A stretch of DNA of 64,000 nucleotides, from positions 28,962 through 92,961 of the forward strand of contig JBDRZZ010000001.1 in the NCBI GenBank assembly GCA_039804165.1. The letters are read 5' to 3'. The notes under the pieces were generated by a model. The model saw only the letters and a program-made list of their open reading frames with translations, ran no database searches and was not told where the DNA came from. The position numbers and the translations under genes were made by a program. This stretch comes from a candidate division WOR-3 bacterium. GTDB lineage: Bacteria; Hydrothermota; UBA3072. Below, piece after piece: positions 43,796-62,452 of this stretch (within the stretch, counting starts at the first letter, position 1; the number at the start of each line of letters is the position of its first letter).

Positions 43796-44418
43796 TTCTC
43801 TCTACAATTATTCTTGGATTTTTGGGATGGGTTATTGCACTTTTGCTTTTGTATAGGAATATTAAAATTGAAGGAGGGAAAAGTTATAAGGCTGTGCATT
43901 TATCAGCCATTAAGGATGGAAGAGTTGGAGAGTTGTTCAAATTTGGTATTCTTGAAGGAATTCCGGTTATATCGGAAAAGGATATAAAAAAGATTGATGA
44001 GTTTTTAGAAAGTAATGAATTGCCTGAAGGTTTTAAGGATAGATTGAGAATTTTCAAGGGTCTTAAACCAAAAGTTATTAAGGAAGAGTTACCTCTTTTT
44101 TGCAGGAAATTAGGTTGTCCAGCGGTTGTTTCAGGAGAAGTAAAAGATGAGCTTGAAATTCAAGGGATTAAATGTATTGACATAAAAGTCCTTGATAAAA
44201 TTGGGAGGCCTAACTTATTAAGGGGCGAGAAGATTAGAGTTAATTATGTGGATTATGGTTATGACAAAGCAGAGGGTTTTTTAGAAGATGGGACAATTGT
44301 GGAGATAAAAGGGAATTTTCCAGAAGAGCGTCCCGTTTCTATTGAGTGTATTGTGGAAGGGGTAATAGAAAGTAAGTTTAAAAGAAAGGTTTTTGCGAGA
44401 TTTAAAGGAAATGATTGA
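43783..44418 (+). CDS. Membrane-anchored TRAM-domain protein (YacL-like, lacking an obvious PIN domain).
   Basis: N-terminal TM segment, then a C-terminal beta-barrel-like 'GEKIRVNYVDYGYDKAEGFLEDGTIVEIKG'. It sits at the position YacL occupies after radA. Confidence 0.35.
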   Translation: MWFMILSTIILGFLGWVIALLLLYRNIKIEGGKSYKAVHLSAIKDGRVGELFKFGILEGIPVISEKDIKKIDEFLESNELPEGFKDRLRIFKGLKPKVIKEELPLFCRKLGCPAVVSGEVKDELEIQGIKCIDIKVLDKIGRPNLLRGEKIRVNYVDYGYDKAEGFLEDGTIVEIKGNFPEERPVSIECIVEGVIESKFKRKVFARFKGND

Positions 44419-45085
44419 AGCTATAATTGTGGCTGGAGGAAGAGGGGAGAGAATGGGCGGTGTCTATAAACAGTTTTCTTTATTGGGTAATAAGCCAGTA
44501 TTTCTTTATTCCTTAGAAAGATTTATTGAGTATGGAGTAAACAGCGTTATTCTTGTAGTTCCTAAAGAAAAGGTTTCATTTGTTAAAGAGTTAGTTGAGG
44601 AATTTAGAGAGAAAGTTAAAGTTGTAGTGGGTGGAGAAAGGAGACAAGATTCGGTTTATAGTGGGTTTAAAGAGAGTTCTGGAGAATTAATTTTAATTCA
44701 TGATGCAGTTCGTCCTTTTGTTAGTGTTGATATAATTCGGGAAGTGGTAGAGGGGGTAAAAAAGGTAGGAATTTGTGCTCCGGGAATTCCGGTTAAAGAC
44801 ACTTTAAAGCTATACAAGAAGGATGAAATTTTATGGACATTAGAAAGGAGGAACTTGCTTCAAGTTCAGACTCCACAAGGTTTCAGAAGAGAAATTTTAA
44901 AGGAGATTGTAGATTTATACTCAAAGTATTCTTTTACAGATGAACTGGCTTTTGCCGAGAGGCTAAATTACAAAATTTGCTGGGTAAAAGGTGATCCTAT
45001 GAACATAAAAATTACTTACCAAGATGATATGGAACTTGCCAAAGCGATTTTAGAATACAGGAAAAATTATGGGAATAAGTTTTAG
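44393..45085 (+). CDS. ispD: 2-C-methyl-D-erythritol 4-phosphate cytidylyltransferase.
   Basis: 'AIIVAGGRGERMG...KQF' N-terminal motif. 230 aa. Confidence 0.8.
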   Translation: MRDLKEMIEAIIVAGGRGERMGGVYKQFSLLGNKPVFLYSLERFIEYGVNSVILVVPKEKVSFVKELVEEFREKVKVVVGGERRQDSVYSGFKESSGELILIHDAVRPFVSVDIIREVVEGVKKVGICAPGIPVKDTLKLYKKDEILWTLERRNLLQVQTPQGFRREILKEIVDLYSKYSFTDELAFAERLNYKICWVKGDPMNIKITYQDDMELAKAILEYRKNYGNKF

Positions 45086-45108: not shown

Positions 45109-46425
45109 ATGAGAATTGCTGGAGTTCATATTGAAAGAGCAATTTTAGTAATAAGAGAGAAAGAAAGAGGAAAAATATCTTTTTTGAGGTTTCAGTCTCT
45201 AAATGAGTTATTTAAGTCAAGAGAAATAAAAAGATGTAATGAGATATATGTAAATGCTGGAGAAAATAATTTTCTCGTAAAAATAAAAAATTTTTCAAAT
45301 AGAGATCCTGAAGAAGCTAAAAATTTTGTAATAAAAAACTTGAGTGAATTTACAATTGGGAGAGGAAAAGATTATATAACCAAAGTTTTTGCAATTCCTA
45401 AAGGAGATGGTTCTATTATCTATGTTGTTGAGGGTAAAGAGGAAGAGATAAGAAAAAGAATTACCACCTTACCAATAGAAAATTACTTAATTTCCGGGAT
45501 TATTCCAGATAATTTTGCAATTGCCTATCCTTTTATGGAAGAAGAAAAAATAGAGAATATAGTTTTAGTTGTTGAAATTGGAAGAGGAGAGTTTATTTTT
45601 ACATACCTTGAAGATAGGAAAATTACATTCACGAGAAGTGTTTTTTATGAAGAAAAAGAAAAGATAAGTTCTCTAAAGAAAGAATTAGATATTTTATTAA
45701 ATAAAGTAGGCTCGGTAAAGAAAATCTACTTTACTGGTGATATTAGTGATAAAGAGATAAAGGAATTGAAGAAAGATTTCTATTCTTATAAAACCAAAAT
45801 TAAAGGGATTTATACTACAAAAGGTCTCCCCCCTGAAGCGATTCTTGCATATGGGCTCTCACTTGCTCCAATTATGAAGTTTGAAAACGATCTCACGCCA
45901 AAGTTTCTTATCGGAATAAAGGAAGAACGGAGAAGAGAGTTAAGAATAAAGAAATTCTTAATAAGTGTAGTTTATTTTTTTAGTATTTTAATATCTATCC
46001 CTATATTTTTATTAATTACGGGGAAGATTTGGATTTTTGTTTTTAATCAGCGAATTGATAGATTAAATACTTCATATGAAAGGGCAAGGAAGATGGAAAT
46101 TAAAGTTATGAAGTTGAAGGAGAAGCTAAGGCTGAATGAAGAAATAAGGAGAGGAGTTTCTTGGGGTAAGTTTCTTTTTGAAATATCTAGGTGTATTCCA
46201 GATGATGTTTGTTTGCTTGGGCTTGAGAGTGAACCAAAAATTGAAGAGAGAAAGAAAGGATTTGTTGTGAATCTAATTGGGATAGGAAAAACCCATGAAG
46301 CTATTATGGAGTTTTGTTCTAAAATTCAAGATATTGGGATGGTAAGCGAGATAAATATCAAAAAGATAAAAACGGAAAAAGGTGTAATAAATTTTGATTT
46401 TGCTATAACCTTATATTCCGAATAA
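45109..46425 (+). CDS. Putative type IV pilus assembly PilM-PilN fusion protein.
   Basis: N-terminal actin-like ATPase-fold region starting 'IAGVHIERAILVI'. A mid-protein Arg-rich stretch 'KEERRRELRIKK' is followed by a single TM helix and a coiled coil, as in PilN. It is convergent with the pilin/secretin operon. Confidence 0.4.
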   Translation: MRIAGVHIERAILVIREKERGKISFLRFQSLNELFKSREIKRCNEIYVNAGENNFLVKIKNFSNRDPEEAKNFVIKNLSEFTIGRGKDYITKVFAIPKGDGSIIYVVEGKEEEIRKRITTLPIENYLISGIIPDNFAIAYPFMEEEKIENIVLVVEIGRGEFIFTYLEDRKITFTRSVFYEEKEKISSLKKELDILLNKVGSVKKIYFTGDISDKEIKELKKDFYSYKTKIKGIYTTKGLPPEAILAYGLSLAPIMKFENDLTPKFLIGIKEERRRELRIKKFLISVVYFFSILISIPIFLLITGKIWIFVFNQRIDRLNTSYERARKMEIKVMKLKEKLRLNEEIRRGVSWGKFLFEISRCIPDDVCLLGLESEPKIEERKKGFVVNLIGIGKTHEAIMEFCSKIQDIGMVSEINIKKIKTEKGVINFDFAITLYSE

Positions 46426-46966
46426 AAACACCACTTTTTAAATGGATTGTGGTTCTTCCTTTTTTAAGTTTTATTTCCCAATCTATAACTTTTATTTTTT
46501 TAAGACTCAATAAATCAAGAGGTAGATAGTAAACCGGGGGAGAACTTTCATTAAGAAAATTAGGTGAAAGATAATATATAAATTTAAAAGAGATAACCTT
46601 TATTTCTTTTGAAACTATTTTTTCCTTCGATTTAAATAAAAGAGAATCTCTCCAAGAAAAAGAAGAAATTTTACCTTCTTCATTTAAAAAAGTAAGACTA
46701 TCTTCGTCCGCGAATATAATTTCACATGCATTTATTAAGTTCCTTTGGATTATGTTAGATATTTTTACCCCCTCTTCTGTTAATTCATCTTTCCATCTAT
46801 TTTCATTTGTTCTTCTATATATCTGAAAGAGGGTAGTGAAAAGAACCGTGCTTAGAATACTGAAAATAAAAAGGGCAAATATTAACTCTATTAAAGTAAA
46901 AGCTTTATTTTTAACGAGACGTTGAGTAAAAATACTTGGAGTATTCCTGGATTTCTTTATTTTCAT
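46403..46966 (-). CDS. Prepilin-type N-terminal cleavage/methylation domain protein (pseudopilin).
   Basis: 'KAFTLIELIFALFIFSIL' class-III signal motif. Confidence 0.6.
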   Translation of the reverse strand: MKIKKSRNTPSIFTQRLVKNKAFTLIELIFALFIFSILSTVLFTTLFQIYRRTNENRWKDELTEEGVKISNIIQRNLINACEIIFADEDSLTFLNEEGKISSFSWRDSLLFKSKEKIVSKEIKVISFKFIYYLSPNFLNESSPPVYYLPLDLLSLKKIKVIDWEIKLKKGRTTIHLKSGVFIRNIRL

Positions 46967-46989
46967 CCTAAACCCTAATTTATATCATC

Positions 46990-47322
46990 CTATAGTTCCT
47001 TCAGGAATTGAATTGCCAAAATTCTTTTCTTGTTTACATAAACTTTAACACTACATAAAGGTGGAAGTTCTTTATTCATTTTTAGAATCGTCTCATAAAT
47101 TATTTTATCTAACGTATCTACGCTAACAGTGTCCTTCTGAGAATCTATTCCTCCAAGAGTATGCTCAGCTTTTTTTCTTGCAAGAAGTAAAGCAACTTCT
47201 TTCTTTCTTATATTCTCTGAAAAGGAGAGACTTTTTATAAGGAATTGATAAAGAGAAAGAAAAGCAATCGCGATAATTGTTATTGAAATAATAATTTCTA
47301 TAAGAGTGAACCCTTTTTTCAC
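46990..47322 (-). CDS. Type IV pilin / pseudopilin (110 aa).
   Basis: Start reassigned to the GTG at 47322-47320, which overlaps the upstream stop (GTGA). Product begins 'MKKGFTLIEIIISITIIAIAF', a canonical prepilin leader plus GFTLIE motif. The track ORF extending to 47469 overlaps the upstream gene. Confidence 0.6.
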   Translation of the reverse strand: MKKGFTLIEIIISITIIAIAFLSLYQFLIKSLSFSENIRKKEVALLLARKKAEHTLGGIDSQKDTVSVDTLDKIIYETILKMNKELPPLCSVKVYVNKKRILAIQFLKEL

Positions 47323-48542
47323 ATTAATTTCCAGCTTTTTCTTTTTATCTTCTGTGTGTTTAAATAGTAGGATAGACAAATTGATTCCGGAATTTCTCCT
47401 ATGATTTCTCCCTCGAGCACATTTCCATAATGTCCATTTGAGCTTCTTCCATAAAGAGAATGGGCACATAAAAGGCCTTCCAGTTTACCTTGAATATTAA
47501 TTTTACCTGTTGAATATAATAATCCTTTACATTTAGCATATTTTTCTACTAAGATTATATTTTGATAACCGCCTGCAATAGTTTTCTCTGCTATAGATAT
47601 TGCACTCCCACAAAAGGAGGCTGATTCGGTGAATTTTATTTGATTTGTCTCTCCATAAGCAATCAAAACCGACGAGTTTTCCACCTGAGAGAATTCCGCA
47701 ACTCTAATTTCGTTTTCTGAGATAATCTCTCCTGAAAAATAACTGTATCCACTTAAAATAACTGAATTTGCAGAAAAAATAGAGACATTATACAACTTTG
47801 AATCATTTTGTATTCTCACCTCTCCATAAGCAATAAGAGTAAGATTCTTAAGAATTCCATTTTCTATTATTATGTCTGAAGAGCTTATAATTGTTTTTTT
47901 GTAGTCAAAAGTATCACTCTGAAAGAATACAACATCATTAACGAAAATAATTTCTTTCTCTGGAACTTTCTTTTTGTCGTTAAAAATCTGAGGGGAGAAT
48001 AGCTCAGTATCTGCCTTAAAGGGAGATTGAATGTATGCGGTAAATAAACTAATTTTCTCTTTTATTGCAGTTATATTTAAAGAAGGTAGCTTCTCTCCAA
48101 CCATAATGTTACCATTTATATATCCATATATTTCTGGTTTTTGAGTTGTTTCTAAGATTATCCTAACATCAGCAATACTTGAGTCTAATTTTGACCCATA
48201 TTCTGAGAGAACAGTGACTTTTTCCTTTTTAAATTTTCCCGTGGATTCTATTTCCATAAAACCCTTTTCTATTTTTGCTTTAATTGTTAATTCTCCTCCA
48301 AAGAGTGTGTCTGTTTCTTTGTGTTCCGAAGAAGGTAAAATCTTTGAGATTTTTGCCGATCCCGAAGAGGCAATATAAAAAGCTTGCTCCCAATCAACAT
48401 ATTTATTCAATCTCCAAAATTGGTGATTGGTTATTAGTAAGAAAGAGCCTAATAATGAAGAAATTACGAAAATAATATTTAAAGTAAGAACAAGAGAAAA
48501 ACCTCTATTTAAAATTAATTGTCTTTTTGCCATATTCATCAA
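47319..48542 (-). CDS. PilX-like minor pilin / pilus-associated protein.
   Basis: N-terminus 'KRQLILNRGFSLVLTLNIIFVISSLLGSFLL' resembles the PilX_N domain. Large beta-rich C-terminal region. Confidence 0.4.
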   Translation of the reverse strand: MMNMAKRQLILNRGFSLVLTLNIIFVISSLLGSFLLITNHQFWRLNKYVDWEQAFYIASSGSAKISKILPSSEHKETDTLFGGELTIKAKIEKGFMEIESTGKFKKEKVTVLSEYGSKLDSSIADVRIILETTQKPEIYGYINGNIMVGEKLPSLNITAIKEKISLFTAYIQSPFKADTELFSPQIFNDKKKVPEKEIIFVNDVVFFQSDTFDYKKTIISSSDIIIENGILKNLTLIAYGEVRIQNDSKLYNVSIFSANSVILSGYSYFSGEIISENEIRVAEFSQVENSSVLIAYGETNQIKFTESASFCGSAISIAEKTIAGGYQNIILVEKYAKCKGLLYSTGKINIQGKLEGLLCAHSLYGRSSNGHYGNVLEGEIIGEIPESICLSYYLNTQKIKRKSWKLM

Positions 48543-48900
48543 CTATAATTTTATCTGGATAGATTTTTAGAATCTTTATATTGTTTATTTTATCTCCTTC
48601 TTTTACGAAAATTGTCTTTTCTCCATTTATACTAATTGCAGCAGAAGGTTTTTTAGGATCCCATAAGATTGCTTTAATAGTAATAGAAGAAGTTTTCTTA
48701 AATTTTGAGATTTCTCCTGAAAAATTTGTTTTATATCTAAAAGGATCTCTTTCTATTTTTGGGATTTCTACATTTTTTTTCTTTTTAAAATTTATTTCAA
48801 TTTTAGGGAAAGAGGAACTTGGTTCTTTTGGTAAGGTAACATAAAATGCAATTATAAAAATTAAGAATAATAAATATCCTACTATTTTATTTGTCGACAT
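48505..48900 (-). CDS. Hypothetical single-pass membrane protein in the pilus cluster.
   Basis: N-terminal TM 'IVGYLLFLIFIIAFYV'. Operon context only. Confidence 0.3.
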   Translation of the reverse strand: MSTNKIVGYLLFLIFIIAFYVTLPKEPSSSFPKIEINFKKKKNVEIPKIERDPFRYKTNFSGEISKFKKTSSITIKAILWDPKKPSAAISINGEKTIFVKEGDKINNIKILKIYPDKIIVDEYGKKTINFK

Positions 48901-49387
48901 TATCTAAAAGAAAAAGTCTTAAACGAAGTTGAAGAGTTATTCCTTCTTGACCTCTTGATAGTTTTATTTTCTCTATCCGAGTTTCTTCTAATTTCAGTTG
49001 ATATAAGAATGAACAAATTTCAGAATATTTTCCTAAGAGTTCCAAATCCACAGTAACATAAGAAAAGGGATTTGTTTTTATAACTGGAGAGTGAAGGATT
49101 GATATTATGGTGAGTCCTGAAGATTTAGCTAATGATAATAAGTGGGTTATGCCTTCTGATGGTGTTTTAAATTCTATATATTCTTTAAGTCTTTTTGATA
49201 AATACTTTTCTAAAGAAAAATAGTAACTATAAAGCGCCTCTCCGTGGGAGTACGAAAGAAACTTTTTTTCTGTGGCAAGGAGTATTTTATTATTTTCTTT
49301 TACTTTTTTCACTAAATTGCTGAATAGAAAAAAATAAATTATAAGGATTACTATCCCTGCGGAAATGACTCTACGATATTTACTCAT
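48887..49387 (-). CDS. PilO-like pilus assembly protein (tentative).
   Basis: 166 aa, N-terminal TM then a periplasmic domain. Assigned by position between the PilP-like gene and the pilin genes. Confidence 0.3.
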   Translation of the reverse strand: MSKYRRVISAGIVILIIYFFLFSNLVKKVKENNKILLATEKKFLSYSHGEALYSYYFSLEKYLSKRLKEYIEFKTPSEGITHLLSLAKSSGLTIISILHSPVIKTNPFSYVTVDLELLGKYSEICSFLYQLKLEETRIEKIKLSRGQEGITLQLRLRLFLLDNVDK

Positions 49388-49859
49388 TTTCTGAGTCTTC
49401 TACCTCTTCAGGTTCAGATGGAAGGGGTGGTTTTTCAGTTTTAGTGACTCTTTTTAAAATAGAAACCAAATTCCTTCCTGTGTTTTGAGAGAGAAAAGAA
49501 ACCACATCCTCCCATTTGCCTTTATATTTCGCTTCCGTTATTCCAACTATTGAAGAGCTCTCTTTTGCTTTTACTTTCGCAATAACTTCGTATATTTTAT
49601 AATCAGGGTTCTTAAGACCAGAAAGAGAAGAAGTTATGTGAAATTTAACAAAATATTTGGCCTTTAAGGAATCTTCCACAGGGATAAATTTGCCTTTTGA
49701 ATTCTTTAACACATAAAGTTGTGTTTTATCCCCTAAGATACCATATCTCCCAGAAATTTTTTCGAAATATATAGGTATTGTATCTGTCTTTTGGGAAGTT
49801 GCAAAATTAGATATGCAATTTATTACAAGTAAAATTACTAAAAAAAATAATTTTCTCAT
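49380..49859 (-). CDS. PilP-like lipoprotein (tentative).
   Basis: Signal peptide ending '...LLVINC'. About 160 aa with an acidic C-terminal tail. Immediately downstream of the secretin. Confidence 0.3.
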   Translation of the reverse strand: MRKLFFLVILLVINCISNFATSQKTDTIPIYFEKISGRYGILGDKTQLYVLKNSKGKFIPVEDSLKAKYFVKFHITSSLSGLKNPDYKIYEVIAKVKAKESSSIVGITEAKYKGKWEDVVSFLSQNTGRNLVSILKRVTKTEKPPLPSEPEEVEDSENE

Positions 49860-51622
49860 TCTGTCTTATTCCAAGGAATAACTTCAGGTGTTAAGTATAC
49901 AATTAACTCGGATTCATCTGTGTTAACGGATTGACTAGAAAAGAGAAAATCGCCAATAAGGGGAATATCTCCGAGGATTGGAATTTTATTTTTGGTGACA
50001 GTTTCCGTTTTATGAATTAGACCTCCTATTATTGCTGTTTCACCTTCTTGGAGTTTCAAGGTGGTTTTAACGGAACGTTTTGAGAGCTCTGGTAATCCTT
50101 CTGCACTAATTCCGGATATTGCTGAGACCTCTATTTCTACATCGGCAGTTACATCATTGTTTTTCCCCACCCAAGGAGTTATAAGTAGTTTAACACCCGC
50201 GTCTACTGAATGGACTTCAATTATTGGATTTTCTGGGGTGCCCACTCTTGTCCGATAAAATCCTTGCCATCCCACATTGATACTTGCTTTTTGTCCACTT
50301 ATTGTTACAATACTTGGTTCTGCATGCACCTTTGCTATCCCTTTTTGTTCAAGAGCATTTATCATTATCCTGAAATCTGCGGGAATTTTTATAGAGGTTC
50401 CAATATTGAGAGAGGAGGAAATATAATCCAATATTTCATCTATATCTTTTTTTGTAAATGTCAATTTGACCTCACCAGGAGCTAATTTTAAAGAGTCAAC
50501 GAGTTTTTCGCCTGCTTTTATTCCCAATTCTGATAATTTTTTTCTTGAAACTGAAAGAATAATAGCTCTCATTCTGACCCTTTTTGTAGGAATGTCAACT
50601 TCTTTTAAGAATTCTTCCACTTCTTGAAGCTGAGAAGGAGCCATTGAACAAAGTAGAGAGTTATGTTCTTCAACAACTTTTATATTAGAAGAGGGGATAG
50701 AAGGTGGCAATAGCTTGTATGCGTCTTCCGCTTTAAGGTATTTAAGCGGAACAAGAGTAACAGAAGATATTATTCCTTCCCCTGGAATTTTTCCTTCTAT
50801 TTTTCCTATTATATAAACATTTCCAGTCTTCTTATACCCATAACCTGTCCCTTTTAAAACAAGATTGAGGGTTTTACCAATAGGTTGGTCTTTTATATTT
50901 GCTGAAACCATTCCTGTAATTTCTCCATAAGTTACAATATTTATCCCAGTTTGCTGAGATAGCTCATCTATAAAATTTTGTAAATCCAGGTCTTTAACAT
51001 CTATAGTAATTAAAGTGTCTTGGCTTATTCTTATTCCACCGGTTGTCCTTCTCCTTATAGTTTTTCCTCGTTCTCTCTCTCTTCCTTCTGCTCTTATGAC
51101 TTCTATAATTTCATCTCTTTCTATAATTTCAAAGCCTTTTGAAGTGAGAAAGGCTTCTAATCCTTTTTTTATAGGGACTTCCTTAAGATAACCTGAAATT
51201 CTCATTTCTCTCACATTCTCTCCAGCTACTATTGTTAATCCACTTTTTTTTGAGATTTCTTTTAATAGACGCTCAATTTCTACATCTTCACAGTCAAGGG
51301 AGAGGAGACCATTTTCTACAATCACATCCATTTTTGGCGCTTTGCCTCTGATTAAATAATAAACATTTTCTTCTTTGGTAACAGAGCATCCAAGAGTTTG
51401 GGCTAACGTAGATAGAAGTTGATCCACTGTTACATCTGAGAGATAAAGCGTTACAGTCCCTTGGACATCCGCTTGTAGAACAACGTTCAATCCATATTGT
51501 TGGTTCAATAATTGAATAGCCTCTTGAGCCGGGAGATTCTCAAACGAAACAGAAATTTTTCTTTCATCCTCTGCCTTCAAGATTAGGAAAGCGAATATTA
51601 GAAAAGTAAATAATCGTTTCAT
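49856..51622 (-). CDS. pilQ: Type IV pilus / T2SS secretin (PilQ/GspD family).
   Basis: N-terminal STN domain 'QEAIQLLNQQYGLNVVLQADVQGTVTLY'. C-terminal secretin domain 'GETAIIGGLIHKTETVTKNKIPILGDIPLIGDFLF'. Confidence 0.8.
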   Translation of the reverse strand: MKRLFTFLIFAFLILKAEDERKISVSFENLPAQEAIQLLNQQYGLNVVLQADVQGTVTLYLSDVTVDQLLSTLAQTLGCSVTKEENVYYLIRGKAPKMDVIVENGLLSLDCEDVEIERLLKEISKKSGLTIVAGENVREMRISGYLKEVPIKKGLEAFLTSKGFEIIERDEIIEVIRAEGRERERGKTIRRRTTGGIRISQDTLITIDVKDLDLQNFIDELSQQTGINIVTYGEITGMVSANIKDQPIGKTLNLVLKGTGYGYKKTGNVYIIGKIEGKIPGEGIISSVTLVPLKYLKAEDAYKLLPPSIPSSNIKVVEEHNSLLCSMAPSQLQEVEEFLKEVDIPTKRVRMRAIILSVSRKKLSELGIKAGEKLVDSLKLAPGEVKLTFTKKDIDEILDYISSSLNIGTSIKIPADFRIMINALEQKGIAKVHAEPSIVTISGQKASINVGWQGFYRTRVGTPENPIIEVHSVDAGVKLLITPWVGKNNDVTADVEIEVSAISGISAEGLPELSKRSVKTTLKLQEGETAIIGGLIHKTETVTKNKIPILGDIPLIGDFLFSSQSVNTDESELIVYLTPEVIPWNKTE

Positions 51623-52581: not shown

Positions 52582-55500
52582 GTGAATTATCCTCATTACG
52601 ATTTCAATACTGATGAACCTTTAAGGCAGAATTGTATGCTTACTGAGATGGTAGATAAGAATGGTAATTCTGTGCGATTTACATGGCGTGAGTATATTAG
52701 GGAAAAGCTTCGTGAGTCGCGTCCTTATGCATTTAGAATTCCAGAGTCCATTATTACTCCAACCACGTGGTGTAGGTTTGAGCGTAAAGAGATAGATAAT
52801 CCTAATTCTGGTGCATGGGATTTTTTCTTGGTGGACAAGTTGTTTAGATGGGTAGTGAGTGAAAATGTTAGTGTTTATGAAGTTAGGTTTTATTATACAC
52901 AGAGAAATATACCTCAAGCTATAGAATATTGGTATGGACATGAATTAGTTCTTTTAGATTCAGTAGTTTTTTATAGCAACGATTTTTATAGTGGAGTATA
53001 TAAGATAAATCCTTCGTATAAGTTTTTCTATGATAATAATACAGGGGAGCTTGTTAGGTTTATCACTCCTGATGGTGCTGAATACAGGTATGAATATGAG
53101 ACAGTAGAGAGTTCGACTCTGAGTTTAACTAAGTATCGTAGAATTAAAAAGAAGGAGGTAGTGCTTCCTGGAAGTTCGGAGATTTTAAGGTATGAGTATC
53201 ATTATGCAGGTGGTACAGATCTTAAAAAAAGCTCAGTTGGAGAGAGGGAAGACTGGGGAGGAGAGTGGTCGAGAGGGTGTTCAGATGGTTTTTCTTTTTA
53301 TCCTATTTATAGGAAATGTTCTGTAGTTTTACCTGAAGGTGATAGTATAGTTTACTGGAATGTGAATGATAAGTATTTAAGGGAAAATTTTAAATATTAT
53401 AGTTTTGGTAAAGAAAGTAGTATTTTTAAGGAAGTTGAGCCGAAGAGGCTGCAGTTGATGTATGGGAGGCCTTATAAGATAATGAGATTTGACAAAAGCG
53501 GAAGGCCTTTGGAATTAGAGTGGTTATATTGGGTTATAGGTAACAAAGGTAAGAATAGACTTTCTCCGAAGGAAGATGAGACCACTCTTCCTTCGGGTGT
53601 TTTGCGTCCTGTTTTAAAATATAGAGCGATTCAGAAGAATCCATCTGACACGGTAATAGGGGTTGGGGATATTTTTGAGCTATATGAATATGATTACGAC
53701 AATTTTGGTAATGAGAAGAAATGTATGTTTCATGGATATGTTGAGTATTATGGGATGGAGTGGGATACGATTATTTATCCTGAAACCCCTGATAGGTGGT
53801 GGGAGGGATGGTGTAATAAGAGGTTTATTTATGACGACGTTGATTCCTACGATAACTGGAGGGTAGAGAAGGATTTTCAATATGAGAAGGATTATCGATA
53901 TTTTAAGGATTGGAAAGGAGATACTATTTATAGTAGGTTATTAGTTCATCTTCCGGCTTCAATAAGGAAATATAGTAATAATGGGAATTTAATTAATCAC
54001 ACAGAGTTTGAGTATGATGAGAATGAATTAAAGGATATTAGCTGTTTTAATGGTTATCCAGAAATAGTGACTTTTCATAATTCTGAATATTTTAATACAG
54101 GTTATAAGTATCGTGGAAACCTTACCAAAAAGACCGAGTGGATAAATGAGAATGAGACTCGTTCAAAGGAATACTGGTATGACATTTGTGGTAATCTTGT
54201 TGAAATGGAAGATTATATGAATAACACCTATCAATTTGTCTATGATGATGATGCGGTATTCCCGTATCACAAGGTCTATCCAGATGGATCAATTGAGACT
54301 TTAAAATTTGATAAAGAGGGTAATCTTAGGAGCTTTACCGATAAAAATGGAGTAATTAGTGAATTTTATTATGATGTTTATGGAAGATTGGTAAATTATA
54401 GAAAAGGAACTTCTGGGGAATATAAACTTCTTGGGGAATATGAATATAATGATTTTGAGCATTGGGCAAAAGAACGTTCTTCCTTCTCGAGCGCAGATGT
54501 TACCTATTATTATTATGATGGACTGGGAAGACTTAAGAAGACTAAACAACCTTCGCTTTCTGGGAAAGAGATAATTCAGGAGTATTTTTATGACAAGAAT
54601 GGGAATTTGAATAAAGAAACAATTCCGAGATTTAGCACTGCTCTTCAAGCGGATACAGTTAAAAAGAAATTTGATATTCTTAAGAGAGTGAGGGAGATAG
54701 AATATCCAAAGAGTTCGTACGAATCTGGAAGGGAGGTTGTGGAATATGAGTATAAAAGGGATACAACGGATGTTTATGATGAGATGGGTTACCGCACCAG
54801 ATTGGTTAATGATGCATCTGGTAATTTAATAAGTGTTTTGGATGCTCTTGGAAATTGGACTTATTATAGTTATGATGTCAATGGAAACCTTACAAAAATA
54901 AAAGATGCTGAAGGCAAACAAACAACCTTTAAATATGACTGGCTTGGGCGGTTATTAGAGAGTAATGGTCCTGATAGGGGGAAGGATTTATTTGAGTATT
55001 ATCCTGACGGTAAGATAAAGCTTCACGTTCAGAATGGAGGGGAGAATATCTTTTATGAATATGATGAATTAGGTAGGATCAAAAGAAAAGGGAAACCATG
55101 CTTATATACTCCCCCTATAGTTAATGTAACAGACACTCTTTTATATGATTCTGAGATCAAGGAGATTATTCCGGAATATGAGAGTTCAGCGGAGTGGGAG
55201 TTAAATTTAGATATATCTAGCTGGGAAGATGTTCAAATAAGTTTTATGGCGAGATGTGGAGTTGTATATGGTGATGGTTCTCAGTATGTAATAGGGAAGT
55301 GTTCCTTAGAAGTGTATTTTTCAAATCCTATTGATACTTTTATTAAGACAATTGAAATATATGAAGGTTCTTTATCTGCAAACTCTTGGGGTTATGAGCT
55401 TAACAAGTATAATTATCGGTTTAAGCCTAAGAATTACGGGAATATCATTACGCGAATAAAAATTACTCATACAGGCAAAGCTTTAGGTGCTTTTCCGTGC

Positions 55501-57984
55501 GGTTATCCCTGTGGGAATTGGGAGGATGAAATTAAAGATGTTTTAATAATAGGGAGTGGGTATAAATCACCTCCTTACTCTGTTCTTAAAGATACTCTTG
55601 AGGAATATTTCTATGATAACTATACAATAAAAGGTGTAACCTATACTCCTCCTTCAAATTTAAATTATCCTAAGGGAAGGTTGACAGGTTTCCAGAATGC
55701 TAATTTAAGGGAGGTTTATTTTTATGATATGTTTGGGAATCTTGCTCAAAAGAAGGTTATTCCGTTTACTCCTTATGGGAAGGAGTTGGATTTCAAATAT
55801 TCCTACGACTTAAAAGGGAGGGTAACGGAGTTAAGATATCCTGATAATTACCCAGTGGAGTATGGTTATGATCAATTTGGGAATATTTCCTATCTTAAGA
55901 TAGGTGGAAAGACTCAGGTATCTCTTTCCTCCACAGCGGCAGGGCTTTTGAGTCGTATTAATTTTCCTAGTGGGGTTAAGGATACATTTGCATATAAGCC
56001 GAGGAATTGGATGAATTGGATGGAGATTAAAGGTGTTTCTGATCCTTATCAGAGGGAATTTTTGTATAACAAGCGTGGGGAGCTTATAAGTATATATAAA
56101 GGTAATACGAGGACAAGCACGTTTAAATATGATGCTCTTGGGAGACTTACTAGGGAGTGGGTTACTGGGGAGCCTGGGACTTATGAGCATACATATCTTT
56201 ATGATAAAGTAGGGAATAGGCTTGAGGTTGATTATGGGAGCAAGAAGTATACCTATTATTCAGGGACAAATAAGTTAAAGAGTGATGGGGAGAGGACTTA
56301 TTCTTATGATGCGAACGGAAGAGTTGTTGGGATTAGTAGTGTAGTGGATAATATTAGTTATGATGTAGATGGTAATATGACTGTGCTTGTTACTCCTGAT
56401 GAGACTTATAAGTATTATTACAAAGGTAATCAAAGAATAAGGCAAGAGGTAGAGCAGTATGGTTCTGGATCTTTTACAAGTAATTATTTTTACGACAACT
56501 TTGGGAATTTAATTTTTGAGGAAGACGATTCTCCCAACATTCTCAAGAATCCTGGATTTGAGAGTGGTAATACAGATGGTTGGGGTAAGTGGCCAGTGGA
56601 TGTTTACTGGAATGTGACTTCGAGTGAGTCTCAGGAGGGTAAGTACTCTCTTTATTCTCCGAATTTTTCTTCAACGATGCAGAATGTTGAGTGTTGGATG
56701 CAGAATTTTTCTCTTTCAGAGGTGAAGAAGCCTTTCACTGCTTCTTGTTGGGTAAAGGCGGAGAATTTAACTGGTGGAGTGAAGATAATGGTTGAATTTT
56801 GGGATGTGAATTGGTCTACCCAACTTAGTGTTAAGTCTTCATCAGTGGTAACTGGGACTAAAGACTGGACGAAGCTTTCTGTGACTGTTAATAAGAGTGA
56901 TGTGCCTCAGAATGCAATGAATTTTAAGGTTACGGTATTGAGGTTTGAAGGTGGAGGTAGACTTTGGGTTGATAATGTTCGTTGTGAATCGGGTTCTACT
57001 CGGACGCCTCCAACGAGATACATTTATGCAGGTAACCGTCTCCTTGCAAAAGAAGTTGATGGGAGCTTATATTTCTACCATCTTGACCGCTTGGGTTCAC
57101 CCATTATGATTACTGATAAAACCGGAAGCATTCTAAAGAGAAAACAATACGAAGCTTTTGGGAACCTGAAATGGCAATCTGGAAGTCTCTCCGACAATCG
57201 TGAATTCACCTCCAAAGAGAAAGACCCGACAGGACTCCATTACTTTGGTGCGAGGTATTATTCTGGGAATATTGGGAGATTTTTGAGTCCTGATCCGCAT
57301 ACGCTTATGCCGGGAGGTTTAGAGTTAAGCAATCCACAATCTATAAATCCATATGTTTACTGTGTAAACGACCCATTCAGATATAAAGATCCTAATGGTG
57401 AATTTATATTAGCGGTTGAATATGATCAGAGTGCACAATATGGGTCAACACAATATGTTTGGCGTAGTTTCCCAAGAAGCTTCTCCAATGCGATTTCTTA
57501 TGCGGCGATGAATCGTCCAGAATTAGCCGCTATGTCCCTCGCTCCTAATGGAGTGTATTATTCAAAGACCAGAGCAGACGTACCTGGAACAAATGCGGCT
57601 GCGAGAAGCTGGCGTCTATATGATTATAAACTGGATACTAAACCTGCTGGGAAGTCTTTTGCTCCGCATAAAGCATTATTGATTAACAGTGGAGGTAAAG
57701 TCCCCACAGAAGAGATAAATATAAATCCCAGATCTAAATATTATGGTGAAAAAGCAGCCGATAGGTTATGGATCCATGCTGGAAGTAGAAAAAAAGATAT
57801 AGGTGGAACTGGGTCAGAGGGTTGTATCACAGTCCCTACTGTTCTTGGTAATAAAGAATATAGGACTCAGGATCCCGAAACTTGGATCTACTATAATGAT
57901 TGGATATCGAATTTTGAGAATTACCCAGAAGGGAAACTACTAATAATAAGATTTCCTACATGGATGGAAAACTTGTGGAAATGA
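52582..57984 (+). CDS. RHS / YD-repeat protein with RHS core and a C-terminal polymorphic toxin domain.
   Basis: Dozens of YD repeats (e.g. 'DKNGNSVRFTW', 'YDALGRLTREW', 'YSYDANGRVVG'). RHS core 'YHLDRLGSPIMITDKTGS...FTSKEKDPTGLHYFGARYYSGNIGRFLSPDP...NPYVYCVNDPFRYKDPNGEF'. About 190 aa of unique C-terminal sequence follow the DPxGE boundary. A GTG start with a GGAG SD sits at 52573-52576. Confidence 0.85.
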   Translation: MNYPHYDFNTDEPLRQNCMLTEMVDKNGNSVRFTWREYIREKLRESRPYAFRIPESIITPTTWCRFERKEIDNPNSGAWDFFLVDKLFRWVVSENVSVYEVRFYYTQRNIPQAIEYWYGHELVLLDSVVFYSNDFYSGVYKINPSYKFFYDNNTGELVRFITPDGAEYRYEYETVESSTLSLTKYRRIKKKEVVLPGSSEILRYEYHYAGGTDLKKSSVGEREDWGGEWSRGCSDGFSFYPIYRKCSVVLPEGDSIVYWNVNDKYLRENFKYYSFGKESSIFKEVEPKRLQLMYGRPYKIMRFDKSGRPLELEWLYWVIGNKGKNRLSPKEDETTLPSGVLRPVLKYRAIQKNPSDTVIGVGDIFELYEYDYDNFGNEKKCMFHGYVEYYGMEWDTIIYPETPDRWWEGWCNKRFIYDDVDSYDNWRVEKDFQYEKDYRYFKDWKGDTIYSRLLVHLPASIRKYSNNGNLINHTEFEYDENELKDISCFNGYPEIVTFHNSEYFNTGYKYRGNLTKKTEWINENETRSKEYWYDICGNLVEMEDYMNNTYQFVYDDDAVFPYHKVYPDGSIETLKFDKEGNLRSFTDKNGVISEFYYDVYGRLVNYRKGTSGEYKLLGEYEYNDFEHWAKERSSFSSADVTYYYYDGLGRLKKTKQPSLSGKEIIQEYFYDKNGNLNKETIPRFSTALQADTVKKKFDILKRVREIEYPKSSYESGREVVEYEYKRDTTDVYDEMGYRTRLVNDASGNLISVLDALGNWTYYSYDVNGNLTKIKDAEGKQTTFKYDWLGRLLESNGPDRGKDLFEYYPDGKIKLHVQNGGENIFYEYDELGRIKRKGKPCLYTPPIVNVTDTLLYDSEIKEIIPEYESSAEWELNLDISSWEDVQISFMARCGVVYGDGSQYVIGKCSLEVYFSNPIDTFIKTIEIYEGSLSANSWGYELNKYNYRFKPKNYGNIITRIKITHTGKALGAFPCGYPCGNWEDEIKDVLIIGSGYKSPPYSVLKDTLEEYFYDNYTIKGVTYTPPSNLNYPKGRLTGFQNANLREVYFYDMFGNLAQKKVIPFTPYGKELDFKYSYDLKGRVTELRYPDNYPVEYGYDQFGNISYLKIGGKTQVSLSSTAAGLLSRINFPSGVKDTFAYKPRNWMNWMEIKGVSDPYQREFLYNKRGELISIYKGNTRTSTFKYDALGRLTREWVTGEPGTYEHTYLYDKVGNRLEVDYGSKKYTYYSGTNKLKSDGERTYSYDANGRVVGISSVVDNISYDVDGNMTVLVTPDETYKYYYKGNQRIRQEVEQYGSGSFTSNYFYDNFGNLIFEEDDSPNILKNPGFESGNTDGWGKWPVDVYWNVTSSESQEGKYSLYSPNFSSTMQNVECWMQNFSLSEVKKPFTASCWVKAENLTGGVKIMVEFWDVNWSTQLSVKSSSVVTGTKDWTKLSVTVNKSDVPQNAMNFKVTVLRFEGGGRLWVDNVRCESGSTRTPPTRYIYAGNRLLAKEVDGSLYFYHLDRLGSPIMITDKTGSILKRKQYEAFGNLKWQSGSLSDNREFTSKEKDPTGLHYFGARYYSGNIGRFLSPDPHTLMPGGLELSNPQSINPYVYCVNDPFRYKDPNGEFILAVEYDQSAQYGSTQYVWRSFPRSFSNAISYAAMNRPELAAMSLAPNGVYYSKTRADVPGTNAAARSWRLYDYKLDTKPAGKSFAPHKALLINSGGKVPTEEININPRSKYYGEKAADRLWIHAGSRKKDIGGTGSEGCITVPTVLGNKEYRTQDPETWIYYNDWISNFENYPEGKLLIIRFPTWMENLWK

Positions 57985-58708: not shown

Positions 58709-58731
58709 GGGTCAGACCTTGAAATGTGAAA
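58709..58731. repeat. Left 23 bp terminal inverted repeat of the RAYT element.
   Basis: Exact reverse-complement match to 59694-59716. Confidence 0.7.
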
Positions 58732-58768
58732 AGATTGACAAAAAGGAATAAGCGAATAATATATCGGT

Positions 58769-59713
58769 ATGGCGAGACCATATCGCTTGCAGGGGGAAGG
58801 TTACTTATATCATATCACGAGCAGGGGAGACGACAGGAAAAGGATATACATCAGCGAATATGATTATGAGAAGTTTTTGGAATATCTTCTAAAGGCGAAA
58901 GAAAAGTATAATTTTTATCTTTACGCTTATTGTTTAATGACGAATCATTATCATTTGTTGATAGAGACCACACAGCCTAACCTTTCAAGGATAATGCAGT
59001 ATATAAACACTGCATATACTGTCTATTACAATAAAAAGAGGAATAGAAGCGGTCATTTGTTTCAAGGGAGGTATAAATCTATAATAGTTGATGGAGATAG
59101 TTATTTTTTAGAATTAACAAGGTATATACACTTAAATCCTGTGAGAGCCGGTGTATCTAAAACTCCTGAAGGTTATAAATGGTCCAGTTTTAATGAATAT
59201 ATCACCGATAGGAGAAAAACAATAATAGATAAAAAAGAAATAAAGAAATATATTAAGATTAATCCTTCGAGATATAAACAATTTGTATTGGATGGGATAG
59301 ATAAAAAACCCGATATTTTGGATAAAGTTTACGCCGGATTTGTCCTTGGAGGGGTAAAATTTATAAAAGATACAATAAAGGACTTAAAACAGCAAAAAGG
59401 AGGAGAAATTTCCTACAAGAAAAAGTTAACCAATTATATATCAGTAGATGAAATAGTCAAAGAAACAGCTGAACTTTTTAAGAGATTGCCAGAAGAGGTA
59501 TACGCTTGGAAGAAAAAGCCCTTGCTTGCGAGAAAAGCAGCGATATATTTATCTAAGAGACTAACAGGGTTAACCAATAAAGAGATAGGGGAGGCATTTA
59601 AAATAACATACTCCGCAGTAAGTAAGTCATACAGAGATATGGAAAAGATAATGGAAGAGAGAAGAAGAATAAGGAGAGATATTGAAACCATCATTTCACA
59701 TTTCAAGGTCTGA
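58769..59713 (+). CDS. Y1 (HUH) tyrosine transposase of the RAYT / TnpA_REP family, fused to a C-terminal DnaA domain-IV-like HTH.
   Basis: HUH motif 'NHYHLLIET'. RAYT blocks 'GHLFQGRYKSI' and 'RYIHLNPVRAGV' (catalytic Tyr). C-terminal 'ARKAAIYLSKRLTGLTNKEIGEAFKITYSAVSKSYR' resembles the DnaA_C HTH. Confidence 0.8.
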   Translation: MARPYRLQGEGYLYHITSRGDDRKRIYISEYDYEKFLEYLLKAKEKYNFYLYAYCLMTNHYHLLIETTQPNLSRIMQYINTAYTVYYNKKRNRSGHLFQGRYKSIIVDGDSYFLELTRYIHLNPVRAGVSKTPEGYKWSSFNEYITDRRKTIIDKKEIKKYIKINPSRYKQFVLDGIDKKPDILDKVYAGFVLGGVKFIKDTIKDLKQQKGGEISYKKKLTNYISVDEIVKETAELFKRLPEEVYAWKKKPLLARKAAIYLSKRLTGLTNKEIGEAFKITYSAVSKSYRDMEKIMEERRRIRRDIETIISHFKV

Positions 59714-59716
59714 CCC
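59694..59716. repeat. Right 23 bp terminal inverted repeat of the RAYT element. It overlaps the transposase stop codon.
   Basis: Exact reverse complement of 58709-58731. Confidence 0.7.
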
Positions 59717-59721
59717 CATAG

Positions 59722-60261
59722 ACACTCATATGGAGTATCGCAGTATTGTATGTAGCGGATGCATTAGGAGGGTCAACTCTTGCGTATGTAGGAACTCAAG
59801 CAGTAGGCACATTTATAGGTTCAGGGTTTGATTATGTTGGTGTAGGTCCTGTAAATATACCTACCAATGGTGATTGGTTGGGAGCAAATATTGGGAATAT
59901 TATTGGTGATCTTGAGTTGATAAGTGAGATAGAAGGGGGAGGTAAAGTATCATGGAACTGGCAAGCGTTAGCATGGGTTTCTGAGGGTGGGCCAATATCT
60001 CGGTCAATGGTGGATACAAAATTTGCGCATGGTATGGCAAATTATAATGTTGTATATAAGGGATACGAGCCAACACTTAGAACTAAGGTACATGAATTTA
60101 CACACATTTGGGAGATGAGATTCGGAGGTAGCTGGATTTATTATTCTACCTATCAACTTTTTTCAGGTTTATACGGTTATTGGGATAATCCTTATGAGGT
60201 ACAATGTTTTAATAGAGCTAAAATAGATATCTACGATGCAATGATGGGAATTGATTGGTAA
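59722..60261 (+). pseudogene. Orphan C-terminal toxin cassette remnant (Gly-zipper hydrophobic segment plus HExxH metallopeptidase-like motif), lacking an N-terminus.
   Basis: The frame opens right after a TAG at 59719-59721 with no credible start. The track starts the ORF at a TTG at 59746. The 'HEFTHIWE' motif is present. The remnant abuts the right IR of the RAYT element. Confidence 0.35.
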
Positions 60262-60379
60262 GGAGTGAATCGTCAGTTTAAATTATGAAAGGGTAGCGTA
60301 GTTAGTTGAAATATTTGAAAAGGCATTTAATTTTATGAGTAAGGTTCTCTAAAAAATGTAAAAAGGAGGAGTAAAATTT

Positions 60380-60520
60380 ATGCATTTAAATCATTATATA
60401 ATGACTAAAGTTTTAGCGACTAAGCATATTTTTTCTGGTAATAAATCTTATTTTATACCAGGCAAGACAATCTTCAAATCTATAAATACTATATCTTTAA
60501 TTCTATTAGCTTTTTTATGA
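60380..60520 (+). CDS. Small ORF (46 aa) with a strong SD, translationally coupled (ATGA) to the downstream gene.
   Basis: AAAGGAGGAG RBS 7 nt upstream of the ATG at 60380. The stop TGA at 60518-60520 overlaps the ATG at 60517. Product is MHLNHYIMTKVLATKHIFSGNKSYFIPGKTIFKSINTISLILLAFL. Confidence 0.3.
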   Translation: MHLNHYIMTKVLATKHIFSGNKSYFIPGKTIFKSINTISLILLAFL

Positions 60521-61173
60521 GTTCTTGCAAGACTGCTGATCCAGGCTGGTTGTATATGTTGGAGCGACCCTCTTTAGATAGAGTTGAGTGTAGATACGGT
60601 TATGGATATGTTTATAAAGACGATTCTTTGGGTATTAAATTGACTGCACAGGACTTTGCATTTGAAACTGATGTTATATTAAGGATAGCTACCCCTTTAG
60701 ATAGCATTATAATCTATCCTAACTTTGCATATATTGAATCTCCTCATTTTGTTAATAAGGTACATGTTCCAAAAATGATTGGTATTAAATGTGTTTCCAA
60801 TGACTCATTAATATTTAAGAAGATGTATGAAATTGATGAGATTAAAGGGAAAATTGACTTAGTTAGTTTGGAAGCGTGGCGAGAAGATAGGATAAATATT
60901 AAAGAGTACTATGGGCTTAAGAAAGCAAAGAAAATAAGTAAAGATGAATTTTTGAGACCATATTGTTTGCAGAAGGGGTATTTATTCTCAGTATATTTTA
61001 GCTATAAAAGTTTTGCCATTTATGACGAAAGAAATAATCAGAGAATCCCATTTGGTAGTCCTAATTTCACCCCTGAAAAAAGCGATTTTATTTTTTATTA
61101 TGATATTTACAACAATAATAAGCCATTAACTTTTTATTTCAAACCGACTACTGGTAAGGTTGATGAAGAGTAA
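60517..61173 (+). CDS. Hypothetical protein (218 aa). Candidate orphan immunity protein.
   Basis: Intact ORF downstream of the orphan toxin remnant. No family recognised. Confidence 0.4.
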   Translation: MSSCKTADPGWLYMLERPSLDRVECRYGYGYVYKDDSLGIKLTAQDFAFETDVILRIATPLDSIIIYPNFAYIESPHFVNKVHVPKMIGIKCVSNDSLIFKKMYEIDEIKGKIDLVSLEAWREDRINIKEYYGLKKAKKISKDEFLRPYCLQKGYLFSVYFSYKSFAIYDERNNQRIPFGSPNFTPEKSDFIFYYDIYNNNKPLTFYFKPTTGKVDEE

Positions 61174-61381: not shown

Positions 61382-62452
61382 TTGAAAAGGAGTGATTTTA
61401 TGAAAACAAAAATCCTTAAAAGGTTTTTTCTTGTTTTAAATGGTTTATTTTTTTCTTTCCTTTATGCTGATACCATTTTCTTTCAGGATGGTTACGAGGC
61501 TGGGCAAGATTTTTCTGGTAATTTTATAAACTGGGATGAGACTGAAACTTATGGAGGTGTAGGGGAAGCATATGCAATTGATGATACGGTTATTACTCAT
61601 ACTGGGAAGCATAGTGGTCGTTTCGAATTGTCAGATGGGACTCAAGGTGGATGTGCTTATACATCGAAGGTTATTTCCTGGCCTACTGGGAAAAAGCTTT
61701 GGTATAGTTGTTGGTTACGGAATGGCTCAAAAGAGAAGTCCAATGTTGTCGTGGGTGGGTTGTATTTTATGGAGGCTTATGTTAAGGAGGGTCCTTGGAG
61801 AGATAGAGCAAACTTAGAGACACACCCCCCTCATATGGAAATACCAGATAGTCTGTTTATGTTGAGAATGGCTTATCGTGGTAGAGATGGAGAGCGACAT
61901 CGTCAAGAAGAGAATCTCCAATATATTAGAAGAGAAAAATGGCATCACATTGTGATGTTGGTAGATTTAAGCGGCGAAAATCCTTTTTATGCTTGGTGGT
62001 TGAATGGAGAACTTATCTGGTCTACATATGATAGTTCACAGGGCCAAGATACTTTTCCTCCAACTGAAATTCATTTTGGCGCAACAAATCTTGATTGGTG
62101 GGAAGGGAATAGGGCAGAGGTTTGGATAGATGATTGCCTTGTTACAGACTATTATCCATCTTCTTCGGTTCTTATTGATTCCCAAAAAATTCCTTTAAGC
62201 TTAAAAGTTATTCCCAATCCTATTTTAAGGGTAAGCGAAATAAGGTTTGTAATTCCAGAGGATGGACTAGTTAGTATGGAAGTTTATGATGTATGTGGAA
62301 GAGAGGTTGAGAGAGTTTTTAATAATGTTTTTTACGCTTCAGGGATTCATCGGATAAGTTTAGATTTAAGCAAGTTTTCTTCTGGAATTTATTTTTTTAA
62401 ATTAAGTGCAGGGAGAAGAGAACTAGTTGAAAAGGTTGTCCTTATAAAATGA
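61382..62452 (+). CDS. Secreted ConA-like lectin/glucanase-fold protein with a T9SS C-terminal sorting domain.
   Basis: Signal peptide. Central beta-sandwich-like region ('WHHIVMLVDLSG...WWLNGELIW'). C-terminal 'LKVIPNPILRVSEIRF...GIYFFKLSAGRRELVEKVVLIK' is a T9SS CTD. Confidence 0.5.
   Translation: MKRSDFMKTKILKRFFLVLNGLFFSFLYADTIFFQDGYEAGQDFSGNFINWDETETYGGVGEAYAIDDTVITHTGKHSGRFELSDGTQGGCAYTSKVISWPTGKKLWYSCWLRNGSKEKSNVVVGGLYFMEAYVKEGPWRDRANLETHPPHMEIPDSLFMLRMAYRGRDGERHRQEENLQYIRREKWHHIVMLVDLSGENPFYAWWLNGELIWSTYDSSQGQDTFPPTEIHFGATNLDWWEGNRAEVWIDDCLVTDYYPSSSVLIDSQKIPLSLKVIPNPILRVSEIRFVIPEDGLVSMEVYDVCGREVERVFNNVFYASGIHRISLDLSKFSSGIYFFKLSAGRRELVEKVVLIK

Follow-up and report, generated by a model that had tools for sequence, protein, structure and literature searches.

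A candidate L,D-transpeptidase-fold toxin domain at the C-terminus of an RHS protein from a WOR-3 bacterium

Here, we analyze a stretch of 64,000 nucleotides (nt) from the metagenome-assembled genome of a candidate division WOR-3 bacterium (GenBank assembly GCA_039804165.1, contig JBDRZZ010000001.1, positions 28,962 to 92,961 of the forward strand; henceforth termed the window) and focus on an RHS/YD-repeat gene, its unique C-terminal tip, and the lipoprotein gene that follows it. An original prediction made from the DNA letters and their translations had proposed that the tip carries a YkuD-like catalytic core and acts as a peptidoglycan-targeting toxin. Our comparisons of sequence profiles and structure models indicate that the tip domain is very probably homologous to the L,D-transpeptidase fold (YkuD, MEROPS C82).

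The RHS gene, its tip and the adjoining lipoprotein gene

The large open reading frame (ORF) at the center of the locus combines RHS repeats with an RHS-associated core that ends in a DPxG motif and thereby belongs to the RHS type (Table 1). The core terminates in ...NDPFRYKDPNGEF, and the closing DPNGEF is the presumed site of autoproteolytic release; in the homologues, a DPxG[EKRM][FSWT] boundary likewise precedes the toxin. Just upstream of the core, the RHS shell is interrupted by a CBM_4_9-like carbohydrate-binding module (nt 56536-56898; 25.2 bits, cut-off 25.9), an addition that is unusual for RHS shells and might serve a surface or receptor-binding role.

Directly behind the core lies the unique tip of 192 amino acids (aa) that the original prediction had placed after DPNGEF. 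Its proposed catalytic motif is present, 3 nt away from the approximate coordinates first given for it, and the distance of 16 residues between His124 and Cys140 (tip numbering) equals that in IHGTNNPASIGKAVSKGCIRM of Bacillus subtilis YkuD. This likeness holds for a YkuD reference sequence that we confirmed against the PDB entries 1Y7M, 4A1I, and 2MTZ (E 1e-106 to 1e-107; the alignment with 2MTZ is full-length). When all six frames of the 64-kb window were translated, H-x(12-16)-[ST]-x-G-C appeared a single time; of 20,000 shuffled versions of the tip, 5 contained it. The tip also contains, as HAGSRKKDIGGTGSEGC with a spacing of 16, the C82 motif H-x(14-17)-[S/T]-x-G-C, in which His and Cys are conserved, as defined by Sibinelli-Sousa et al. 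2020.

The candidate immunity protein encoded downstream of the tip has the N-terminus MRKNGLFIISFILILFAMNC, a signal peptide followed by Cys20, which makes it a probable lipoprotein; it has no Pfam or NCBIfam match. One related locus (L001) encodes a 95%-identical toxin and, behind it, this gene in an 87%-identical copy, and in two others (L017 and L018) a 52%-identical toxin (P0002) is followed by a 49%-identical copy. The parallel identities suggest that toxin and downstream gene co-vary as a cognate pair. The lipoprotein or periplasmic immunity partner that had been anticipated for the tip is thus found at the locus and is conserved with the toxin.

Upstream, the RHS body is preceded by a 197-aa ORF whose N-terminus is hydrophobic and resembles a signal peptide (MGLLIIIFLMNADS) and which has AGGAGG as its ribosome-binding site. 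Both ORFs lie in the same frame, separated by a single TAA, and are annotated by NCBI as two proteins. The TAA may have arisen by nonsense mutation or by an error of assembly, or may mark a true two-gene split. Delivery would be Sec-dependent, as for a Sec-type RHS polymorphic toxin, provided that the protein really begins with the 197-aa ORF.

Table 1. Features of the RHS locus in window coordinates; residues are those of the 1800-aa ORF unless stated otherwise.
Feature	Position (nt)	Strand	Residues	Remarks
N-terminal ORF, 197 aa	51955-52548	+		NCBI: separate protein ABIN61_00435
Single in-frame TAA	52546-52548	+		Between 197-aa ORF and RHS body, both in same frame
RHS/YD-repeat ORF, 1800 aa	52582-57984	+	1-1800	RHS_repeat E 4.6e-32; Rhs_assc_core E 1.8e-19
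RHS/YD-repeat shell and core	52582-57405	+	1-1608	
RHS repeat-associated core, TIGR03696	57148-57399	+	1523-1606	
DPNGEF	57388-57405	+	1603-1608	DPxG-type boundary closing the RHS core
Toxin tip, 192 aa and stop codon	57406-57984 (coding to 57981)	+		Immediately after DPNGEF
Catalytic-core motif	57769-57837	+		Translation WIHAGSRKKDIGGTGSEGCITVP
His124 codon	57775-57777	+	Tip residue 124	
Ser137 codon	57814-57816	+	Tip residue 137	
Cys140 codon	57823-57825	+	Tip residue 140	
Candidate immunity protein, 221 aa	58002-58667	+		18 nt after RHS stop; identical to NCBI MEO0292677.1

A rare family of relatives and the genes that follow them

The tip belongs to a rare family: out of roughly 15 billion proteins, about 25 sequences are members. 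When 1.84 billion cluster representatives were searched exhaustively with phmmer, 16 proteins were returned, one of which (P0005) was rejected as a low-complexity artefact, and a profile search contributed 8 further members; a word-indexed search of 5.8 billion proteins recovered a single near-identical fragment only. No relative of the tip, or of an alignment of the second subgroup described below, was found among 185,579 GTDB species representatives, and tblastn against phage and plasmid records gave nothing meaningful.

Family members occur mostly at the C-termini of RHS/YD or Tc-like proteins and in orphan cassettes. Most are C-terminal pieces that open with the end of an RHS core (...YDYGARFYDP..GR...DP....NNP...DP.G.) and continue into the toxin, and P0009, P0022, and P0024 are standalone proteins of about 160-175 aa each. 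In an alignment of 14 sequences, with homologues 23-94% identical to the query tip, the residues G114, H124, G126, S137, G139, C140, and Y163 are invariant. The arrangement H-x-G...[S/T]-x-G-C is kept in all 21 members checked, with His-Cys spacings of 16-27.

A gene was called downstream of the toxin in eight loci, and in every case it encodes an exported protein or a lipoprotein. The second subgroup (P0011-P0014, P0016-P0020, and P0023) occurs in a Bacteroidota-like context, with SusD and TonB in L003, and five of its loci share a different lipoprotein directly after the toxin that is homologous among them; in L013 (1957-2778) this immunity lipoprotein, 273 aa long, is internally duplicated in tandem to give two repeats. 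Elsewhere, P0015 is followed by a lipoprotein with a LAC lipobox and P0003 by a signal-peptide protein. The downstream genes fall into four or more unrelated families, yet all that were translated begin with a hydrophobic stretch of the signal type, and most of these stretches have a Cys close to their end. That unrelated families share export-type N-termini implies a toxin acting outside the cytoplasm, a location that would fit a peptidoglycan target and, by analogy, matches the Tlde1/Tldi1 pair. Precomputed Pfam annotation gave no match for the downstream proteins of L001, L002, and L013-L018, and for that of L019 gave NADase_transloc only.

Several of these loci have organizations of their own. 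In L016 (4001-11623; ENA ERZ27256924), a relative 42% identical to the tip ends a 2540-aa protein with SpvB, TcdB_toxin_midN, FG-GAP, and YD-shell parts that looks like a BC fusion of a Tc toxin; the neighboring gene codes for a Collar-domain protein, and the sequence between the toxin gene and the downstream signal-peptide gene contains a short tandem repeat of GATTGGC. L002 (1-9943; ENA ERZ27262656) is a classic array of orphan cassettes, in which an RHS end with a Peptidase_M91 tip, a Toxin-JAB1, and an IS21-type element are followed by the L,D-peptidase-like toxin and its lipoprotein. In L003 (2683-5649), two near-duplicate toxin cassettes stand in tandem, the immunity gene of the second being frameshifted. 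The gene order of L017 (1-5486; JGI 3300056897) equals that of window positions 40399-45085 (DnaB, ABC ATPase, RadA-like, unknown, IspD), and directly after ispD comes an orphan RHS C-terminus with the 52%-identical toxin and 49%-identical lipoprotein mentioned above, so this neighborhood also hosts such cassettes in related genomes.

Probable relationship of the tip to the L,D-transpeptidase fold

Among the Pfam models, YkuD (PF03734) was the best or only match for the three standalone relatives P0009, P0022, and P0024, with 16.1-17.2 bits and E-values of 0.008-0.018 over model positions 72-141 of 146, i.e., the catalytic half; in a separate Pfam scan, one of 14 family members matched YkuD. 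A profile built from these three proteins was compared with 177,635 distinct PDB sequences, and its top 19 matches were Mycobacterium tuberculosis LdtMt2 (E about 0.3), the sole other match having an E-value of 1.8. The alignment covers 88 residues and places the family His on VFVHS and the family Cys on SHGC, the LdtMt2 motifs carrying the catalytic His336 and Cys354. LdtMt2 surfaced with this standalone sub-profile only, the whole-family profile returning noise from the PDB sequences.

Profile-profile comparison with hhalign pointed the same way. A protein search seeded with YkuD had returned only Bacillaceae sequences of at least 67% identity and gained little diversity; the YkuD profile was diversified by three viral-contig YkuD proteins and two PDB sequences. 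The family aligned to this diversified profile with a score of 20.3 (P 0.012-0.017) through blocks that follow the same order in both: VPT..NP..S.YYG in the family on NPGGPFG in YkuD, IHAGN on IHGTN, GSxGC on VSKGC, and a helix plus EGKLLII on a helix plus NGTRVTI. When alignment columns were permuted, the highest score among 193 valid permutations was 16.8, below that of the unpermuted alignment (7 of 200 permutations were dropped as numerical artefacts with scores of about 130 over 2-3 columns). With just one YkuD sequence as the partner, or with a narrow YkuD profile limited to Bacillus, hhalign aligned the motif alone, and its -glob mode gave no meaningful alignment of the family with YkuD.

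The tip was also modeled with AlphaFold2. On the 14-sequence alignment, the model is mostly beta and has a predicted local distance difference test score (pLDDT) of 79 and a predicted template modeling score (pTM) of 0.78; the single-sequence model was unusable (pLDDT 29). His124 lies on a strand (residues 122-126), another strand follows Cys140 (141-144), and a helix (161-170) and a last strand (175-182) complete an order of elements that is presumably that of the YkuD catalytic domain in 1Y7M. Residues 23-43, a helical insert, and 130-135 are modeled with low confidence.

In Foldseek searches of the PDB, the best match was the Helicobacter pylori L,D-carboxypeptidase Csd6 (4xzz; probability 0.44, E 0.23, template modeling (TM) score 0.35, 10% identity), and all other matches had probabilities of 0.03 or less. 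In BFVD, the top matches were phage proteins without a family name (probability 0.98-0.99, TM up to 0.5), and ranks 5 and 6 (probability 0.77 and 0.54), two of the six best, are named DUF5675, a family that clusters structurally with MEROPS C82 (bioRxiv 10.64898/2026.04.11.717860). Other folds in which a His precedes a Cys, namely caspase-like, sortase-like, and 3C-protease-like ones, were rejected; matches to the coronavirus main protease had probabilities of 0.03 or less and TM scores of about 0.13.

Taken with the downstream lipoproteins, these comparisons suggest that the tip is probably a thiol peptidase, divergent in sequence, that has the L,D-transpeptidase fold and serves as a cell-wall-attacking toxin borne by an RHS protein and paired with an exported immunity lipoprotein, a reading drawn from sequence and predicted structure.

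A number of observations weigh against this interpretation. The fold signal is weak in that every comparison falls below conventional significance, with independent tests agreeing in direction: the hhalign comparisons overall reach P 0.007-0.017 at probabilities of 2-5%, the structure model was built on a shallow alignment of 14 sequences, and Foldseek TM scores stay at 0.35-0.5 with no solved structure at an E-value below 0.001. The tip itself has no match in Pfam, NCBIfam, PHROGs, or the PDB sequences; the Pfam check suggested for its last 195 aa found nothing, and YkuD is missing even at E-values up to 10. Since its relatives reach only 16-17 bits at a Pfam YkuD gathering threshold of 23.4 bits, the relationship is one of remote homology and not of Pfam membership. 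Of the YkuD-type core originally claimed, the fold-level homology is upheld by several weak, agreeing lines, and membership in the Pfam YkuD family is not. The C82 signature further calls for GC-h-[R/N], and the window tip reads GCIT and the family GC-[IWQFLMH]-[TV], in contrast to GCIR in YkuD and GCLN in LdtMt2; a Thr or Val two positions after the Cys in place of Arg or Asn means that substrate binding may differ. Lastly, with an in-frame TAA ahead of it and a transposase just downstream, this RHS copy may not be functional.

The last point can be extended to a decaying or orphaned locus, in which the TAA cuts the signal-bearing N-terminus off the RHS body, the toxin is not exported, and selection acts on the immunity gene only. 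The shared frame of the two ORFs with one TAA between them, their listing as separate proteins by NCBI, a Y1 transposase 100 nt downstream of the immunity gene, and the many relatives that are orphan cassettes all fit such decay, but the catalytic residues are all intact and the 1800-aa frame has no further stop, so any inactivation would be recent or the TAA an assembly error. We consider this scenario unlikely for the locus; it can be compatible with a cell-wall toxin of the L,D-transpeptidase fold, a reading that concerns the identity of the domain.

A second alternative retains an L,D-peptidase-like fold and changes the substrate: the tip might cleave or form other envelope linkages, such as those of a lipoprotein or outer membrane protein to peptidoglycan, or act on a periplasmic protein. 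Some housekeeping YkuD enzymes (Escherichia coli LdtA-C) attach Braun lipoprotein instead of cross-linking stems, YkuD, LdtMt2, Csd6, and DUF5675 all lie at about the same distance from the family, and the Thr replacing the classical Arg/Asn after the catalytic Cys could be read in the same sense. Every characterized toxin with this fold, however, targets peptidoglycan stems, and nothing in our analysis points to another substrate, which leaves this version improbable. Convergence on a His...Ser-x-Gly-Cys motif, with the tip being a thiol hydrolase or amidase whose fold is unrelated or new but which would still act in the periplasm as an RHS toxin, could appeal to the absence of any single conventionally significant comparison and to a model with low confidence at two segments, but is quite improbable given that five different methods independently returned L,D-peptidase-fold proteins as top or only match, that four sequence blocks are collinear and the predicted order of strands and helix presumably fits YkuD topology, and that no valid permutation equaled the profile score.

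Proposed activity, known L,D-peptidase toxins and genomic surroundings

If the tip is a cell-wall-attacking toxin of the L,D-transpeptidase fold, a plausible course of action can be outlined. The RHS shell would enclose the tip, and autoproteolysis by the core domain at DPNGEF would release it. After export, the tip would reach the periplasm of a neighboring diderm cell, where Cys140, activated by His124, would attack an L,D bond of peptidoglycan stem peptides. In the likeliest reaction, tetrapeptides would be trimmed by L,D-carboxypeptidase activity, 3-3 cross-links cleaved, or D-amino acids exchanged as for Tlde1, and weakened or starved cross-linking would lead to lysis. The producer would be protected by the downstream lipoprotein binding the toxin in the periplasm. 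Work on Tlde1 established both trimming of tetrapeptides by L,D-carboxypeptidase activity and D-amino-acid exchange for Tlde1a, and hydrolysis of L,D cross-links was proposed for Tox-LD-peptidase by Zhang et al. 2012 (PMC3482391).

This latter domain is the closest precedent for the RHS setting. As described by Zhang, de Souza, Anantharaman, Iyer, and Aravind (2012, Biol Direct 7:18; PMC3482391), Tox-LD-peptidase has the fold of PDB 1ZAT and conserved H, S, and C residues, resides on RHS repeats, is trafficked by Sec export, labeled as the type II secretion system, by a secretion system of type VI (T6SS), or by TcdB/TcaC, is linked to immunity genes, and has hosts including Bacteroidetes. Judged by the description in that paper, both families share the C-terminal position on an RHS scaffold, with the L016 relative on a TcdB/TcaC-type protein; the linked immunity gene downstream; and the conserved triad, here the invariant H124, S137, and C140. 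They differ in that Imm16 (DUF2750) and Imm57 were not detected here and the downstream lipoproteins lack a family match, and WOR-3 is not among the host phyla reported in 2012.

The Tlde1/Tae5-7 T6SS effectors (DUF2778, PF10908) of Salmonella and other Proteobacteria are also His/Cys-dependent periplasmic toxins of the L,D-transpeptidase fold neutralized by a Sec-exported immunity protein. Some of them sit at Rhs C-termini; Rhs-DUF2778 fusions occur in 11% of genomes carrying one Tlde1 family (Sibinelli-Sousa et al. 2020). Our family is nonetheless distinct from them: PF10908 matches none of 22 members and not the tip, the His-Cys spacing is 16 in the tip and 16-27 across the family as opposed to 10 in Tlde1 (H121/C131), the host belongs to the Fibrobacteres-Chlorobi-Bacteroidetes (FCB) group and not to the Proteobacteria, and the 46 window ORFs scanned contain no T6SS family and show no association with T6SS, PAAR, or VgrG.

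Housekeeping L,D-transpeptidases (YkuD 1Y7M, LdtMt2, and Enterococcus faecium Ldtfm; PF03734, C82) share with the tip the H-x(16)-C spacing and S-x-G-C, a mostly beta structure, and the order NP..G, IHxGN, SxGC, and helix plus G..V.I. The tip departs from them by about 17 residues inserted after the Cys strand and before the next helix, by the low-confidence helical insert near its N-terminus, by the lack of a LysM, peptidoglycan-binding, or Ig-like partner domain, and by a setting of toxin and immunity instead of cell-wall synthesis. Csd6 (4XZZ) is not a transpeptidase but has the hydrolase activity that one would expect of a toxin; however, it is a cell-shape enzyme with additional domains and matches the tip weakly. 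The phage DUF5675 proteins (PF18925), C82-like lysin candidates among the best BFVD structural matches, belong to a setting of phage lysis or virion protein rather than of RHS toxin and show no sequence match to the family via Pfam, PHROGs, or tblastn against phage records.

The view that L,D-transpeptidases had not been described for RHS tips has to be abandoned, as RHS-fused L,D-peptidase toxins figure in both Zhang et al. 2012 (PMC3482391) and Sibinelli-Sousa et al. 2020; the concept was predicted in 2012, and toxin activity of the fold was demonstrated in 2020-2022. Novelty is limited to a sequence-divergent and very rare branch missed by current models, the WOR-3 host, the families of immunity lipoproteins, and the Thr in place of Arg/Asn. 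The analysis adds an unannotated branch to the L,D-peptidase class of peptidoglycan-targeting polymorphic toxins and places this class in uncultured WOR-3 and Bacteroidota-like metagenomic contigs, and the 14-sequence alignment could seed a hidden Markov model for annotating such tips and their immunity lipoproteins. With the concept already known, the value is incremental, and would be greater only if the Thr confers a new substrate specificity. As a tentative and rather doubtful extension, the family could stand as a fifth, separate branch within the L,D-peptidase superfamily, next to YkuD, YkuD_2, DUF2778, and DUF5675, serving as a Sec/RHS- or Tc-delivered toxin of T6SS-less FCB-group bacteria, with the Thr directing it to a different envelope bond (e.g., a 3-3 cross-link or lipoprotein anchor) and with at least four undescribed families of immunity lipoproteins.

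The window otherwise has a chromosomal character, with housekeeping neighbors for L9, DnaB, a RadA-like protein, guanylate kinase, CoaBC, IspD, DnaG, and a sigma-70 factor. The genes immediately upstream of the RHS gene (45109-51622) encode a GspD/PilQ-like secretin that has STN and FecR_C-like parts, two N-methyl pseudopilins, and a PilN-like protein; the secretin and pseudopilins lie on the strand opposite the RHS gene, the secretin being divergent from it. The placement of this cluster beside the RHS gene is a positional observation only.

Downstream of the immunity gene, an element at 58709-59716 with inverted repeats of about 27 bp (GGGTCAGACCTTGAAATGTGAAA) encodes an IS200-like Y1 transposase fused to a DnaA-C-type helix-turn-helix domain (58769-59713). 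It is followed at 59746-61173 by a 171-aa ORF with a HEFTH (HExxH-type) motif and a 218-aa ORF, neither with a family match, which may represent an orphan metallopeptidase toxin and an immunity remnant. Type IX secretion C-terminal sorting domains occur in the products of 15663-17912, 33740-35263, and 61382-62452 (a gingipain-like Peptidase_C25, a GH30-like, and one unassigned protein), which fits a diderm host of the FCB group. At 46-6115, NOV_C, DUF1156 methyltransferase-like, and DUF499 proteins are encoded in a row that looks like a DNA-modification or defence gene cluster. Finally, the ORFs for PurH (22567-24129) and a GH10 protein (23828-25402) overlap by about 300 nt as listed, and the true GH10 start is probably further downstream.

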